64,000 nt of DNA from a virus (Duplodnaviria; Caudoviricetes). A program made the position numbers and the translations under genes. The notes under the pieces are model-generated. The model was not told where the DNA came from. It saw only the letters and a list, made by a program, of their open reading frames with translations, and searched no databases. The DNA lies in the IMG/VR virus record IMGVR_UViG_3300016471_001002, positions 32,001 through 96,000 of that record; one strand, 5' to 3'. This document shows positions 42,229 to 50,442 of the stretch, piece after piece (position 1 is the stretch's first letter; each line of letters opens with the position of its first letter).

Positions 42229-43308
42229 ATGCAACGAACGCTTTGTTTTGATGATGTTCTTTTAGTTCCCCAATACTCAGAGATTGAGTCTAGAAAAAAT
42301 GTTGACGTGTCTGTTTCGGGATTTGATGATCTTGATGCAGCGTTGACAAAATCGCATTCGACTCTAAAATGCCCTATCATCGGATCGCCGATGGATACGG
42401 TCATTAGTCCTGAAGTAGCTAGCGTTTTGGAAGATTTTGGTGGATTCGGGGTTTTGCATCGATATTGTACGATTCAAGATTCAGTAAAAATGTTCAAGGA
42501 AACACTTGAAAAGTGTCCAGGACATCCTTTACCAAATATCATGGTTGCAATTGGCGCAACAGGGGATTATCTTGAACGTGCAACTGCTCTATATGAAGCT
42601 GGATGTAGAGCATTTTGCATTGATGTTGCTCATGGCCATCATTCATCTGTTAAAAACGCATTAAAAGAACTACGTCTTAAACTTGGGGATGAAGTTCATT
42701 TAATGTCTGGCAATGTTGCAACGCTAGATGCGTTTAATGATCTTGCGGATTGGGGCTCTAACTCTATCAGGGTTGGTGTGGGTGGTGGAAGCATGTGTTC
42801 GACAAGAATTCGAACGGGTCATGGTATTCCAACTCTACAATCGGTGATGGATTGTGCAAAATCTGATCGTGATGTTTTTATCGTCGCAGATGGCGGAATT
42901 AGAAATTCAGGTGATGCTGTTAAAGCTTTGGCTGCAGGTGCTGATATGATTATGTTAGGATCTATTCTTGCAGGACATGATGAATGTCCCGGAGATCTTG
43001 TAGATTCTCATGGGTTGACATATAAGTCATCGCAACCTATTGGAGTTCCACTTTTTAAGAAATTTAGGGGAATGGCTTCACGAGAAGCTCAACTACAATG
43101 GAGAGGTAGAGTTTCTGTCGTTGAAGGAGAAAGTACGATGATCCCTTACAAGGGATCTGTAGCAAACACATTGACAGATTTGCTTGAAGGAATTAAATCA
43201 GGAATATCTTATTCAGGTGCCAGGACGATTAGAGAACTTAGATCAAAGGCTAAATTCATCACAGTGACATCACAAGGGGTCCGAGAAAATGGACCCCATG
43301 GTAAATGA
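42229..43308 (+). CDS. IMP dehydrogenase / GMP reductase family protein (no CBS domains)
   Basis: [53 protein letters not shown]; lacks the IMPDH flap RY so the direction of reaction is unresolved. Confidence 0.85.
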
Positions 43309-45273: not shown

Positions 45274-45300
45274 AAAAGCTCTCGGAAACGGGAGCTTTTT
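45274..45300 (+). terminator. Rho-independent terminator
   Basis: aaaagctctcg-gaaa-cgggagctttt, GNRA loop, T run. Confidence 0.85.
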
Positions 45301-45340: not shown

Positions 45341-45349
45341 TGGTATAAT
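45341..45349 (+). promoter_or_regulatory. Extended -10 promoter TGgTATAAT (leaderless dnaE transcript)
   Basis: ATG 45356 lies 6 nt downstream; no SD. Confidence 0.65.
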
Positions 45350-45355
45350 CATGGT

Positions 45356-46327
45356 ATGTCAAACAGCAAGAAGGAAATGCGCGATCGGAGGCCAAATCGT
45401 TTTGTCGGCCTCCACGCGCATTCGTAATTTCCGCCCGGAATTTATTTTCCGGGCGGAATAATATCAGGATTCTCAACATTTGATGGGCTTGATTATCCAC
45501 AAGAGCACATCGATTACGTCTTAGAAAATGGCATGGATGCGTGGGCATTAACCGACCATGGCCACATGAACGGATTCTGCCATGCATATCTTCACGCTGA
45601 AAAAATGAGGAAATCAGGCAAGAACTTCAAGTTCATTCCTGGATGCGAGATGTATGTCCATCCCGATCTGAAACAGTGGCAGATCGATATCGAAAAATCG
45701 AAAGAGAAACCGGTCAAGGATGAATCTATCATCACGCCTATCACGGCTGTTGTTGATGGAAACGATGAGACGACGGATCTTGGAACTGATGAAGCTTCTC
45801 TGACGATCGAAAATGAAGATGAGACGAAGTCAGGTAAGTATAACGACCCAGTTAAACGTCGGCATCATCTGGTTGTCCTACCAAAAACTTCAGTTGGTCT
45901 GCAGAGGTTATTCCATCTGGTTTCTCGGGGTTATTTGGAGGGCTTCTACAGGTTCCCCCGAATTGATTACAGGATGCTGAAGGAGGCTGCGCAAGGTGGT
46001 CACTTGATGGTGTCAACCGCATGTTTAACTGGAGATGTAGAACTCATAACGAATAGAGGCCTAGAAAACCTGTTGTCTGTCGTTGAAAGATTCAATATGG
46101 GTGATGATGTCTTGGTTCTTTCATATGACGAAAAAACAGGGTCTAAGGAATTCAAGAAAGTTTCTTGGGCAGCAATGACTAGAAAAAACGCGAAATTATT
46201 GAGAATTAAACTGAAGGATGGAAAGAGTGTTACGCTGACACCAGACCACAAAGTCTTTACTAATCTGGGATGGATGGAAGCTCAAGATTTAAAAAAGCAT
46301 GAAGGAATTCAAATTCTTACTTTGTAA
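45356..46327 (+). CDS. dnaE: DNA polymerase III alpha, N-terminal PHP part fused to split intein N-half; interrupted by a 42-nt gap with an in-frame stop
   Basis: MSNSKKEMRDRRPNRFVGLHAHS-[TAA..]-SGFSTFDGLDYPQEH..ALTDHGHMNG..PGCEMY..HHLVVL..RIDY..VSTA/C; all in one frame. Confidence 0.88.
45425..45466 (+). other. 42-nt coding gap in dnaE, candidate translational bypass element
   Basis: TCG-TAA-T-[ttccgcccggaa-tttatt-ttccgggcggaa]-taata-TCA; removal restores HAHSGFSTFDG. Confidence 0.7.
46022..46324 (+). mobile_element. Split intein, N-terminal half (101 aa)
   Basis: Block A CLTGDVELIT, block B LTPDHKVF; ends at stop 46325-46327. Confidence 0.92.
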
Positions 46328-46336
46328 GCTTTAGGT

Positions 46337-46368
46337 CCTCCAAGACAAACATAATTATGTCTTGGAGG
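46337..46368 (+). promoter_or_regulatory. SD-sequestering hairpin with late-promoter motif in its loop
   Basis: cctccaagaca / tgtcttggagg perfect 11-bp stem containing GGAGG; ATAATTA at 46351-46357. Confidence 0.75.
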
Positions 46369-46378
46369 TTCACAAACA

Positions 46379-47359
46379 ATGGGAGCAGAAAAGTATAATA
46401 AATTTTTAGGAGAGGAAAAAAGCAGAATATTTGAAAGTTTTCTAGTTACGTGGAAAACAAAAGATCAAATACTCGAGATGTATAGAGAAGGTTATTCTCC
46501 TTCTCAACTTGCCAAGTTGTTTGAATATGAAGTTGGATTTGACGAGCTCCGTGAGCAACAATCTACTTTTCACGGTAAAAAACCAAGAAGCTTTTTAGTT
46601 TTTCCGACTATTACAACAAACATCTTTGCAAAAAGACTAACATCTATAATACCCTACTCAAAAGAGTTTCATGATATTCATCTTTCAAAACCGCAATGGT
46701 GGAAAATAAAATTTTCACACCTTGATAAAAGTGAAGATGAAGTTAAAGAACTTGCAAAAGTTCAGCTTCTAGATTGGCAAAAAAGTACATGCGAAAAAAG
46801 AAAAAAGTCAGGTGCTTATAATCCAATTTACACAATTGATTATTGGAAAGAGAAATCCGATGATCCTGAAAAATCAATTGAAAAATATAAACGAGAAATT
46901 AGTCCAAGGTGCATTGAGTTTTGGATAAAAAAAGGATATGACATAAATGAGGCAAAAAAAAGAATAGGCGATACATGTCGACCTGGTGCCATTAAGGTTT
47001 TGAAAAATCTCAATGGAAAAAATGCTTCGAAATTAGAAAAAAGAATTTATGAGCTCATAAATGATGATTCTGTTTGTCAACAGCTTTTTTTGGGCAAATA
47101 TGCATATGACATTTACAAAAAAGAAACAAAGAAGATCGTAGAAATCAATGGAACGTATTGGCACGCAGACCAAAGGGTTTATCAAGATTTGCAGCAAAAT
47201 CTCATTCATGGAACAGTTCAGCAGATTAGAGAAAAAGATGAACAAAAAATATCTTATGCAAAATCTAAGGGATGGGATGTTCTGGTCATTTGGGAACTTG
47301 ACTATTGCAAATCTCCAAATGAAGTGATAGAATCTATTAGAAGGTTTTTCAAAACATGA
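46379..47359 (+). CDS. Vsr/DUF559-like homing endonuclease between the two intein halves
   Basis: YDIY..KKIVEINGTYWHAD..KDEQK..YAKSKGWDVLVIWE; ATGA overlap with dnaE-C. Confidence 0.8.
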   Translation: MGAEKYNKFLGEEKSRIFESFLVTWKTKDQILEMYREGYSPSQLAKLFEYEVGFDELREQQSTFHGKKPRSFLVFPTITTNIFAKRLTSIIPYSKEFHDIHLSKPQWWKIKFSHLDKSEDEVKELAKVQLLDWQKSTCEKRKKSGAYNPIYTIDYWKEKSDDPEKSIEKYKREISPRCIEFWIKKGYDINEAKKRIGDTCRPGAIKVLKNLNGKNASKLEKRIYELINDDSVCQQLFLGKYAYDIYKKETKKIVEINGTYWHADQRVYQDLQQNLIHGTVQQIREKDEQKISYAKSKGWDVLVIWELDYCKSPNEVIESIRRFFKT

Positions 47360-47472
47360 GTAATTTTGTAGAAGTTGTTGAGGTCGAAGAACTTGATTAC
47401 GTCGAAGACGTCTATGATATTACCGTAGAAGATAATCATAACTTCTTTGCAAATGGGATGTTGGTTCACAAT
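47356..47472 (+). mobile_element. Split intein, C-terminal half (39 aa)
   Basis: Block F VYDITVEDNHNF, block G LVHN followed by extein Cys+1 at 47473. Confidence 0.92.
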
Positions 47473-50442
47473 TGTCTCGGTGGCACGTTGAGTTATGACG
47501 TCTTTTCCAAATTGCAAAAGATCAAGTTTGATGATCTGAAGCATCAGTTGCTCGATGATGCTGCGCTATTTGAATCTGTCTTGCTCGAGATGGGCAACAC
47601 TTATGATAAGCTTGCAGATGCGGTAGGTCGCGAAAACGTTGCTTTGGAGTTGCAGTTCAATAAACTTCCAGCGCAACATCTTGTCAACCGCGCGCTGATC
47701 GAATTTGCGAAACGAAACTCTTTGTCGAATCGGCTAGTCGTCACCTGCGATTCGCATTATTCTCGTCCTGATAACTGGAAAGAACGTGAGATCTACAAGA
47801 AGCTCGGATGGCTCAACTATCAGAACTTCGATCCTAATATGCTTCCAAAGTCTAAGGATGATCTCAAATGTGAACTGTACCCGAAGAACGCAACCCAGGT
47901 CTGGGATTCATATCTGTCCACAACCGAAGGCATGGATTTCTATGATGATGACCTAATCCGCGAGGCCATCGAACGTACTCATGACATCGTTCATAATGAG
48001 TTAGGTGACATTCATCCCAATAAGGAGATGAAGCTTCCTTCATATGTGATTCCTGAAGGGTCGACGGAAGACAAGGCCCTCGTCGAAGCTTGTAAGAAAG
48101 GATTAATCTGGCGAGGTCTGGATGACAAGCCTGGGTATATCGAGCGAATCAAGTATGAGCTGAAGATTATTCGAGACAAGAAGTTTTCTCGATACTTCCT
48201 CACGATGAAGGCAATCATGGACCTTGCACGTGAACACATGCTGATTGGTCCGGGGCGCGGTTCGGCCGCAGGTTCTCTAGTTGCTTATGTCCTCGGCGTC
48301 ACGAACCTTGACCCAATTGAGTATGACCTTTCATTTGAACGGTTCCTTAATCCCTCTCGCCAGGGCGCTCCTGATATCGATTCTGATATTGGAGACCGCG
48401 ATAAGCTGATCGAACTTCTCCGTGATAATTTTGGTAATAACAATGTTATTCCAATCTCTAACTACAATACCTTTAAGCTTAAGAGCCTTGTCAAAGACAT
48501 TTCAAGATTTTATAACATTCCATTCGAAGAAGTCAATGCTGCTCTTGCTCCGGTAGAAGACGATGTCAAGAAAGAAGTCTTCAAACCTGGTGTCGACAAG
48601 AACCTTTTTGTGTTGACTTATGAAGACGCGATGAAGTATTCTAAGTCGATGCAAGACTTCGTTGCATCGCATCCTGAAGTCGCCGAACCGATTGAGATTC
48701 TTTTCAAGCAGAATCGTTCTCTTGGCCGCCATGCCGGCGGTGTTATCGTGTCTGAAGACATTGCTGAACGTATGCCTCTTATTCTCGCAAAGGGTGAACC
48801 TCAGACTCCATGGGTTGAAGGCATGCATTATAAGCATCTCGAAGAGTTCGGATGGATTAAGTTCGATCTACTCGGCCTCGAAACTTTGCGCATCATCGAA
48901 CGATGCATCTATCTAATTTTGCAAAGGCGTGAAGGAATTGCAAATCCAACGTTCCAAGACATTAAGGCTTGGTTTGATAAACACATGGATCCGAAGAATA
49001 TTGATCTAAATGATCAAAAAGTCTATGAATATGTTTATCACGAAGGAAGGTTTGCCGGCGTGTTCCAATGTACGCAACCTGGCGCACAGCGTCTATTTAC
49101 GAAAGCAAAGCCTCGTAGTATCATTGACATTGCTACTCTAACTTCAATCTATCGTCCAGGTCCTCTTGCGGCAAACGTCGACAAGATCTACATTGGCGCT
49201 AAGAACGAACCTGAAAAGATCGATTACCAACATCCTCTTATCAAGAAGGTGCTAGAACCGACTTACGGATGCATCATTTTTCAGGAGCAAACCATGAAAC
49301 TTTGCTCTGTCGTCGCAGGATTCCCTGAGGCAGAGACGGATACAATTCGCAGAAACATTATGAAACGTTCTGCTTCAAAGAAAGACGCCGCGGCAGCAGA
49401 CGCCAAGAAGGCCAAGGAAGACTTCGTTTCTGGTGCGATGAAGAATGGTGTTCCTGAAAGAGTGGCAGATGAACTCTATGAAAAGATTCTCTTCTTCTCC
49501 GGATACGGTTTTAACGCATCTCACGCAGTGTCTTATGCAATTGATTCTTACTACTGTGCATGGCTCCTCACTTACTTTGAGGAGGAATGGCTTTGTGCTT
49601 ATCTTGAATCGATGTCAGGAAATGATGAGAAGCGTGCTAAGGCTTTCTCAGAGGTCAAAGCGCTTGGATACAAGATCGTAAACATCGACGTCAACTATGC
49701 AACGAAGAGCTGGACTATCCTCGAAGGAAAAAGATTCATGCCAAGCTTCCTTTCATGTAAGGGCGTGGGGGAAGCTGCAGTTGATGAGATCATGGAAAAT
49801 CGTCCATACAAATCAATAGAGGACATGTTATGGAATGAGGACGGTACGTGGAAACATTCTAAATTCAACAAACGAGCTCTTGAAGCCCTGATCGGAATCA
49901 AGGCATTTGACTCATTGGATTGTGTTGGCGTAGATAGAACGTTTAGCAGCTATAGACAAATGTATCAAATCCTGATTGATCATAATAATGAAATCAAGAA
50001 GCATACCAAAAAGAACCCTCTCGTTGGAATGGAAGCATTTCGTAATCTCCTGATCGAATCTAAGGATGAACCTGAGTGGACTCGCGGTGAGATTGTCGAT
50101 AATAGCATTAAATACCTTGGTTCATTTAATGCAGCCATGTTAATGCCTGATGATATCCTAAAGAAGTTGGAATCCAGAGGTGTCAAATCAGTTGATGATC
50201 TTTCAGGTAGTGACATTTACTGGTTTATTGTTTCTGACGCAAAACCCAAAAAGACAAAAACAGGGAAAAACTATTTGCTTTTAACGATTACGGGTATTGG
50301 AGGTCAAAATCATAGATTGTTCTGTTGGGGGTGGGATGGTATTAGAGAAATTCCCAAGTACAGCGTTTGTCTTTCTGAAATCACAGTCGATGGATACGGT
50401 AATAAAACTTTTATGAGTAAGGTTAAAGTATTGGATTCATGA
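47356..50442 (+). CDS. dnaE: DNA polymerase III alpha, C-terminal part preceded by split intein C-half
   Basis: HN/CLGG junction; TCDSHY, GPGRGSAAGSLVAY, FERFLNPSR..PDIDSD, HAGGV, KFDLLGL, IIFQEQ, YGFNASHA, C-terminal OB fold. Confidence 0.93.
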   Translation: MSNFVEVVEVEELDYVEDVYDITVEDNHNFFANGMLVHNCLGGTLSYDVFSKLQKIKFDDLKHQLLDDAALFESVLLEMGNTYDKLADAVGRENVALELQFNKLPAQHLVNRALIEFAKRNSLSNRLVVTCDSHYSRPDNWKEREIYKKLGWLNYQNFDPNMLPKSKDDLKCELYPKNATQVWDSYLSTTEGMDFYDDDLIREAIERTHDIVHNELGDIHPNKEMKLPSYVIPEGSTEDKALVEACKKGLIWRGLDDKPGYIERIKYELKIIRDKKFSRYFLTMKAIMDLAREHMLIGPGRGSAAGSLVAYVLGVTNLDPIEYDLSFERFLNPSRQGAPDIDSDIGDRDKLIELLRDNFGNNNVIPISNYNTFKLKSLVKDISRFYNIPFEEVNAALAPVEDDVKKEVFKPGVDKNLFVLTYEDAMKYSKSMQDFVASHPEVAEPIEILFKQNRSLGRHAGGVIVSEDIAERMPLILAKGEPQTPWVEGMHYKHLEEFGWIKFDLLGLETLRIIERCIYLILQRREGIANPTFQDIKAWFDKHMDPKNIDLNDQKVYEYVYHEGRFAGVFQCTQPGAQRLFTKAKPRSIIDIATLTSIYRPGPLAANVDKIYIGAKNEPEKIDYQHPLIKKVLEPTYGCIIFQEQTMKLCSVVAGFPEAETDTIRRNIMKRSASKKDAAAADAKKAKEDFVSGAMKNGVPERVADELYEKILFFSGYGFNASHAVSYAIDSYYCAWLLTYFEEEWLCAYLESMSGNDEKRAKAFSEVKALGYKIVNIDVNYATKSWTILEGKRFMPSFLSCKGVGEAAVDEIMENRPYKSIEDMLWNEDGTWKHSKFNKRALEALIGIKAFDSLDCVGVDRTFSSYRQMYQILIDHNNEIKKHTKKNPLVGMEAFRNLLIESKDEPEWTRGEIVDNSIKYLGSFNAAMLMPDDILKKLESRGVKSVDDLSGSDIYWFIVSDAKPKKTKTGKNYLLLTITGIGGQNHRLFCWGWDGIREIPKYSVCLSEITVDGYGNKTFMSKVKVLDS

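Follow-up and report, generated by a model that had tools for sequence, protein, structure and literature searches.

Fractured genes were described by Dassa, London, Stoddard, Schueler-Furman and Pietrokovski (2009; PMC2677866), whose survey included three DnaE loci (DnaE-1, DnaE-2 and DnaE-3) carrying split inteins at three new sites. The N-terminal intein halves (IntN) of that survey span 88–105 residues and the C-terminal halves (IntC) 33–54 residues, and DnaE-2 was accompanied by a Vsr-like endonuclease with its nuclease domain at approximately residues 196–315. Here we analyze a dnaE locus at positions 45356–50442 of a 64,000-nucleotide (nt) stretch, referred to hereafter as the window, of the 211-kb record IMGVR_UViG_3300016471_001002 of an uncultured freshwater phage (IMG/VR; estimated to be 65% complete). 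We consider it highly probable that this dnaE is likewise a fractured gene, in which a class-1 mini-intein at the Cys codon of the PHP domain was later broken by an endonuclease gene, and that the two resulting products trans-splice.

All features of the locus lie on the + strand. The N-terminal open reading frame (ORF, 45428/45533–46327) encodes most of the DnaE N extein (45467–46021, following an interruption to which we return below), comprising the PHP domain up to LMVSTA (Pfam PHP E = 7.3e-23, and tblastn), and terminates as GGHLMVSTA/CLTGD...TPDH...ILTL-stop. IntN accounts for 101 codons of this frame (46022–46324, stop codon at 46325–46327) and contains both Cys1 and the block B motif TPDH. 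A 51-nt spacer separates the IntN stop codon from a 326-residue ORF (46379–47359) on which we place a free-standing, Vsr-like homing endonuclease, and the stop codon of this second frame overlaps the start codon of IntC (ATGA). The C-terminal gene is a 1028-residue ORF from 47356, beginning with the 39 codons of IntC (47356–47472, containing the block F Asp and block G His-Asn; MSNF..VYDITVEDNHNFFANGMLVHN/CLGG) and running on into CLGGTLSY and the remainder of the C extein (989 codons from the +1 Cys, 47473–50442), which supplies the rest of the PHP domain, the palm, the fingers and a helix–hairpin–helix (HhH) region. Pfam identifies PHP and Intein_splicing domains in the N-gene protein, and Intein_splicing, DNA_pol3_alpha, a finger domain (DNA_pol3_finger) and HhH (HHH_6) in the C-gene protein, with Intein_splicing (PF14890) above cut-off on both halves (E = 4.6e-9 and 4.3e-9). 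The ends of the two genes are thus as described in an initial annotation of this DNA, made by a model from the letters and a list of ORFs.

That annotation had also assigned the locus to the fractured genes of Dassa et al (2009; PMC2677866), and the comparison bears this out. The two parts of the host gene share a strand, their adjacent ORFs restore the host protein and carry recognizable IntN and IntC ends, an endonuclease gene with a hairpin 5′ of its start lies between the intein halves, and the context is that of a phage; the half lengths and the Vsr-like character of the endonuclease (as in DnaE-2) also agree. In the present case, by contrast, the whole locus is available together with its genomic surroundings. 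The PHP-Cys site may be one of the three sites of DnaE-1, DnaE-2 and DnaE-3 or a fourth.

The insertion point can be placed exactly. A scan with the N half gave 73 related IMG/VR loci, in all of which tblastn shows the N extein running directly into the C extein (6489/6490 in the sibling phage locus L001, for example), and 46002 is joined to 47476 in a contig of an independent lake metagenome. Because all 73 intein-less relatives are contiguous at this position, the junction VSTA/CLGG proposed in the initial annotation is secured to the residue; with IntN, spacer, endonuclease gene and IntC taken out, the sequence therefore returns to the normal ...[ST][ST]A-C[LIV]GG... of the family.

Inteins are usually inserted at active-site residues. 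The +1 Cys of the window's C extein aligns with C145 of Thermus aquaticus (Taq) Pol III alpha, and ligand 7 of the PHP metal site is a Cys (Gly134 in E. coli; Barros et al, 2013). By this alignment, the intein sits at an active-site residue of the PHP domain, and the +1 nucleophile apparently serves also as a ligand of the PHP metal site. Insertion points within the PHP domain of bacterial Pol III alpha are known (Novikova, 2016), and a full-text literature search on intein, DnaE, PHP domain and insertion site returned no matching paper.

The cyanobacterial DnaE split intein (Ssp, Npu) shares with the window's intein a host family (Pol III alpha) and the principle of trans-splicing. Its site, however, lies in the polymerase core rather than in the PHP domain (Novikova, 2016; Dassa et al, 2009, PMC2677866), as the initial annotation had recognized in stating that the two sites differ, and its halves are usually encoded at distant loci without an endonuclease. 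Profile similarity to the Npu and Ssp DnaE inteins is also weak (E only ~1e-3 to 1e-4); site and profile E-values together place the window's intein outside the cyanobacterial allele.

Closer relationships emerge from the intein halves themselves. The signature of a class 1 intein is present (C1, T73-P-D-H76, H38-N39 and the +1 Cys), and its residues are conserved across alleles that have otherwise diverged considerably: none of 48 allelic IntN sequences (identity to the window copy down to 42%) departs from Cys1 or from the Thr and His of TPDH, and none of 27 allelic IntC sequences (identity down to 62%) departs from D21 of block F, H38, N39 or the +1 Cys. Against solved inteins, the IntN profile matches NrdJ-1 (E = 5.6e-20), and the IntC profile matches Spl DnaX (2.7e-10), gp41-1 (1e-7) and NrdJ-1 (6e-7), with the acidic strand and blocks F and G of IntC aligning to gp41-1 and IntN aligning to NrdJ-1. 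The window's pair resembles gp41-1 and NrdJ-1 (PDB 6qaz and 8ubs) in intein class by profile, in split position and in half lengths, but differs in host protein and insertion site, and it has little identity to them beyond blocks A, B, F and G. By its sequence, the element is a class-1 intein that is split in nature and lies within the PHP domain.

The halves are also distinguished by their charge, which in the cyanobacterial DnaE split intein has the opposite polarity to that seen here. IntC (39 residues) contains 10 Asp/Glu and no Lys/Arg; IntN (101 residues) is mildly basic overall (16 Lys/Arg vs 14 Asp/Glu), with 10 basic and 2 acidic residues concentrated in the 27-residue basic patch quoted in the initial annotation, whose counts we reproduce. 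From these features came the suggestion of a new, orthogonal split intein whose properties are unseen in known ones, a proposal helped by the low identity to solved inteins, the absence of Lys/Arg from IntC, and the weak similarity and reversed polarity relative to the Npu/Ssp DnaE inteins. We regard it as possible, although on balance we lean against it. The reversal with respect to cyanobacterial DnaE stands, but the polarity is not in itself unusual, given that gp41-1 and gp41-8 have the same N-positive/C-negative arrangement (Dassa et al, 2009, PMC2677866), and the alignments of IntC with gp41-1 and of IntN with NrdJ-1 make cross-reaction within the class possible. Orthogonality to Npu is accordingly plausible, whereas orthogonality to gp41-1-type inteins is doubtful and should not be assumed, because the profiles of IntC and IntN match gp41-1 and NrdJ-1.

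Structure prediction for the IntN and IntC pair places the basic strand R61–L64 of IntN against the acidic strand V5–E11 of IntC, with runs sharing at least 95% of contacts and a partner predicted local distance difference test (pLDDT) score of at least 77. The interaction prediction score from aligned errors (ipSAE) is 0.80, compared with 0.00 for the best control (the mark used is reached by 58 of 80 solved complexes and by 2 of 110 mismatched pairs), a score that we take as a statement of likeness only, because related split-intein complexes have already been solved. A tight interface of this kind would suit equally well an assembly in which the intein halves no longer splice and instead act as a non-covalent clamp that holds two pieces of polymerase together, comparable to intein relics and to the Aeh1 NrdA split; two-piece enzymes held by mobile-element remnants do exist (PMC3045599). 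We nevertheless think a clamp quite improbable, for all of the catalytic residues are invariant over dozens of diverged alleles, which a mere clamp would not need, and without splicing 140 residues of foreign fold would part PHP metal ligand 7 from its neighbors.

We next consider the protein encoded between the halves, for which the best described counterpart is I-Bth0305I, the prototype of the EDxHD family (PMC3239194, PDB 3r3p). The 326-residue sequence matches Pfam DUF559 above the curated cut-off (E = 1.2e-5), and has 14 relatives of 52–91% identity, all 325–329 residues long, some of which are named very-short-patch-repair endonuclease by the Joint Genome Institute. An AlphaFold model (mean pLDDT 75, ~77–94 in the C-terminal domain) finds the catalytic domain of I-Bth0305I as its best PDB match by Foldseek (3r3p; template modeling score 0.73–0.74, probability 1.00), followed by Vsr (1cw0) and a DUF559 protein (3hrl), and so upholds the initial annotation's reading of a Vsr-like endonuclease between the halves. 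Residues D244, E255, Y-W-H262 and D287 are invariant in all 15 endonuclease sequences; their spacing equals that of Vsr D51, position 62, F-W-H69 and D97, this correspondence being assigned by spacing and not by residue-level structural superposition. An Asp/Glu/His/Asp active-site pattern is given for the EDxHD family (Dassa et al, 2009, PMC2677866; Taylor et al, 2011), in which F62 of Vsr is replaced by Glu. The window's endonuclease thus shares with I-Bth0305I a C-terminal nuclease fold and this residue pattern, but its N-terminal region is different and mostly helical; I-Bth0305I is, moreover, encoded in a group I intron of recA, whereas the window endonuclease is free-standing between intein halves. 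A phmmer search of the PDB with the single endonuclease sequence gave insignificant matches only, such that profile and fold searches were needed, and an IMG/VR locus search with the endonuclease protein returned none (the relatives came from tblastn on related loci and from a protein search). We interpret the protein as a free-standing homing endonuclease of Vsr-like/EDxHD type, and predict that it would cleave the empty site.

Upstream of the endonuclease gene, a GGAGG ribosome-binding site 10 nt 5′ of the start codon is buried in an 11-bp hairpin (46337–46368, with the GGAGG on the 3′ arm; fold −20.3 kcal/mol, z = −3.35). A hairpin 5′ of the endonuclease gene accompanies 15 of 16 fractured-gene endonucleases (Dassa et al, 2009, PMC2677866).

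The anatomy of the locus, its exact insertion point, the conserved catalytic residues, the presence/absence polymorphism described below and the fold assignments can be regarded as shown. Splicing, homing and translational coupling are what we infer, and we envisage the following sequence of events. A class-1 mini-intein would have entered at the conserved PHP Cys codon, and would then have been cut by the free-standing Vsr-like endonuclease gene, so that the phage would make DnaE in two pieces, DnaE(N)-IntN and IntC-DnaE(C). KLLRIKLK, the basic IntN strand, would zip onto the acidic strand of IntC (FVEVVEVEE), allowing a single HINT domain to fold. Four-step splicing, using Cys1, the block B Thr/His, the block F Asp, His-Asn and the +1 Cys, would then join VSTA to CLGG, yielding an uninterrupted DnaE of ~1,150 residues with a complete PHP metal site and the junction peptide LMVSTACLGGTLSY. 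Concealment of the ribosome-binding site by the hairpin would keep translation of the endonuclease low; the enzyme would cut the intein-less dnaE of co-infecting relatives, into which the whole cassette would be copied (homing). Translation of the C half may be coupled to that of the endonuclease ORF through the ATGA overlap.

The distribution of the element bears on this history. When 5.8 billion proteins were searched for N halves of comparable length, 188 matched, and among the best 120 N-half clusters ~78 consist of PHP plus an IntN ending at the ...AC/ site (35–89% identity); a query of the first 90 C-half residues returned ~30 clusters that start with a like IntC and continue as C[LIVM]GG (CVAG in one cluster). 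The full layout of N half, DUF559 gene and C half recurs in the independent contigs L074, L075 and L076 and in a 122-kb contig, with endonucleases 67–71% identical. Other relatives carry different forms at the same codon: a contiguous mini-intein of ~145 residues occupies the PHP-Cys site in P0165, and a split intein without an endonuclease gene is found there in the P0022 contig and in L082, the spacer of the latter keeping a CCTCC/GGAGG hairpin despite the absent endonuclease gene. With empty, contiguous, split-plus-endonuclease and split-without-endonuclease forms all at one codon, every stage of the gene-breaking model of Dassa et al (2009) is therefore represented.

Presence/absence polymorphism provides indirect evidence for mobility and for cleavage of the empty allele. 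In L001, which matches the window collinearly across 12.5 kb (96–99% nucleotide identity), the PHP-Cys site is empty. L001 instead carries a different split intein 880 nt downstream (...FLNPHR/CLNPET... and ...LLTHN/SGAPDIDSD, with a +1 Ser), its cassette (L001:7370–8720, equivalent to window 48353/48364) lying at the catalytic GAPDIDSD motif, which is uninterrupted in the window; the gene between these intein halves encodes a 311-residue zinc-finger-rich endonuclease. Over the 880 nt that separate the two intein sites, identity of the window to L001 falls to 90.9% (blastn segments), and a 60-nt sliding identity profile around the junction gave no clear co-conversion tract. A lake metagenome from another study yields contigs across the intein, across the endonuclease and across the endonuclease/IntC junction, alongside the contig with 46002 joined to 47476, in which the site is empty; both alleles therefore coexist in that sample.

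Relatives display further interruptions of the C extein, at ~263 (L040, L061, L070), ~489 (L040, L043), ~601 (L008, L037, L042, L044) and ~693 (L039, L060, L062, L070). Some of the interruptions elsewhere in relatives' dnaE are inteins akin to that of the window (IntC identity up to 76%), and L082 is interrupted at several positions, with at least three inteins in one dnaE.

The intein is not the only interruption of the window's dnaE. The first 23 codons of the gene (45356–45424, MSNSKKEMRDRRPNRFVGLHAHS) hold PHP metal ligands 1 and 2 (HxH) and end with a TCG Ser codon, in a frame continuous with that of relatives which read RFVGLHAHSGFSTFDG unbroken. They are followed by a 42-nt in-frame insert, or gap (45425–45466), which is a candidate ribosomal bypass gap and is composed, in order, of a TAA stop codon, a perfect 12-bp hairpin (45429–45440/45447–45458), GGCGGA, six A/U bases and TCA (fold −25.3 kcal/mol, z = −3.6). 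Excision of the gap restores the PHP motif RFVGLHAHSGFSTFDG exactly, and most relatives are without it. It is present as a single copy in the 211-kb record; L001 has a 42-nt gap also, with the hairpin loop inverted relative to the window. The gap is kept in the DNA of another study and in a contig from an RNA library, although the latter hint is a weak one, since RNA libraries may contain contaminating DNA.

The gap belongs to a family. Inserts of 5–42 nt interrupt the PHP motif HxHS-GFS-TFDG in 18 of the 81 dnaE loci scanned (the window, L001, L002, L007–L009, L028, L032, L039–L041, L045, L061, L067, L069, L073, L075 and L076), sitting just 5′ of the loci's N-extein match; their lengths are 5 nt (eight loci), 7 nt (one), 9 nt (four), 10 nt (two), 16 nt (one) and 42 nt (two). 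In every insert a stop codon comes first, immediately following TCG or TCC, which of the four TCN codons for Ser are the two that the phage uses least, and the last codon matches the take-off codon at two or more of its three positions; excision restores the consensus exactly in each. In the mini-ORF 5′ of the inserts, the amino-acid sequence is kept through synonymous changes. Readthrough by a suppressor tRNA was considered and rejected: ARAGORN identifies 13 tRNA genes in the record (G000 157782–205044, outside the window), including tRNA-Ser(GGA), none of which is a suppressor, and readthrough could not rescue the inserts of 5, 7, 10 and 16 nt, which shift the frame.

Ribosomal hopping looks like the simplest common explanation for the inserts. 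The described precedent is the bypass cassette of T4 gene 60, whose features we take from a 2022 preprint. The window gap resembles it in several ways: the take-off codon is immediately followed by a stop, the gap opens with a stable stem-loop, a G-rich mini-Shine–Dalgarno sequence (GGCGGA) stands 6 nt 5′ of a synonymous landing codon, and the 3′ part is AU-rich. It differs in being 42 nt long and in frame, in passing from Ser UCG to UCA, and in having its take-off codon outside the stem; there is no homology between the T4 cassette and the window gap, and the gaps of relatives are 5–16 nt long and located at a neighboring Ser codon. The initial annotation had held that the mature enzyme requires two separate recoding steps. 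The gap is real and a second event would be needed, but splicing is post-translational and hence not recoding in the strict sense, and the notion of two separate steps would be right if ribosomal hopping holds. Taking gap and intein jointly, DnaE may need both a ribosomal hop over 42 nt and trans-splicing, each at PHP metal-ligand motifs, with the gap a member of an undescribed insert family whose inserts may persist by destroying the target sites of homing endonucleases aimed at conserved PHP-motif DNA; we advance this combined reading tentatively, judging it slightly less likely to be right than wrong.

Two interruptions in one gene, in a record that is a metagenome assembly, could also be the mark of a decaying or misassembled locus with a non-functional dnaE. 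This we consider very improbable indeed. Independent studies recover this sequence, junctions and gap included (it recurs in freshwater and lake metagenomes), all ORFs are intact, and the layout is common to relatives from many samples. We searched the 211-kb record for a second dnaE and for a family-B polymerase and found neither, and the fractured dnaE is probably the phage's replicase.

Several observations weigh against a spliced, mobile and functional dnaE. Splicing and endonuclease activity at the locus are predicted; the endonuclease's sequence matches to solved Vsr-type structures are weak (profile search, E = 0.003–0.1); and the IntN–IntC model may reflect the predictor's memory of solved split inteins. 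A promoter-like site inside the 3′ end of the endonuclease gene is no better than a chance match, the promoter scan of the locus having yielded no more sites than shuffled sequence did, which leaves it a doubtful start for transcription of the C half. With the record only ~65% complete, another polymerase could lie elsewhere in the genome. Setting these points against the sequence evidence as a whole, we hold that the fractured dnaE is real and well formed, and very probably functional.

A split-intein dnaE with an endonuclease has been on record since 2009 and occurs commonly in metagenomes, and the charge polarity is not new. The locus adds a natural pair, with a short (39-residue) and Lys/Arg-free IntC, to a well-populated class, and dozens of natural variants of this split intein are on offer for engineering. 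New are the sibling with its empty site and other intein, the coexisting alleles and the gap family: the turnover of intein and endonuclease is plain at one dnaE codon, and near-identical phages hold different split inteins at different dnaE sites. The gap family is more novel than the intein, which is itself of modest interest, and represents the more surprising biology; if ribosomes do bypass these gaps, the known range of programmed bypassing would be greatly widened.

A megablast of the locus against 50,697 GenBank phage records gave zero matches. Rfam at gathering thresholds gave zero matches in the window or in L001, and a group I intron is therefore present in neither. Immediately upstream of the gene, within 45341–45358, an extended −10 element (TGgTATAAT) ends ~7 nt 5′ of the dnaE ATG at 45356, a position from which the dnaE mRNA may be leaderless or nearly so, and a terminator-like hairpin (45274–45299) lies just 5′ of this element. 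Further upstream, 2 kb 5′ of dnaE, the window contains an IMPDH/GMP-reductase-like gene (42229–43308); IMPDH is among the host genes broken by split inteins (Dassa et al, 2009, PMC2677866), and the copy here is uninterrupted.

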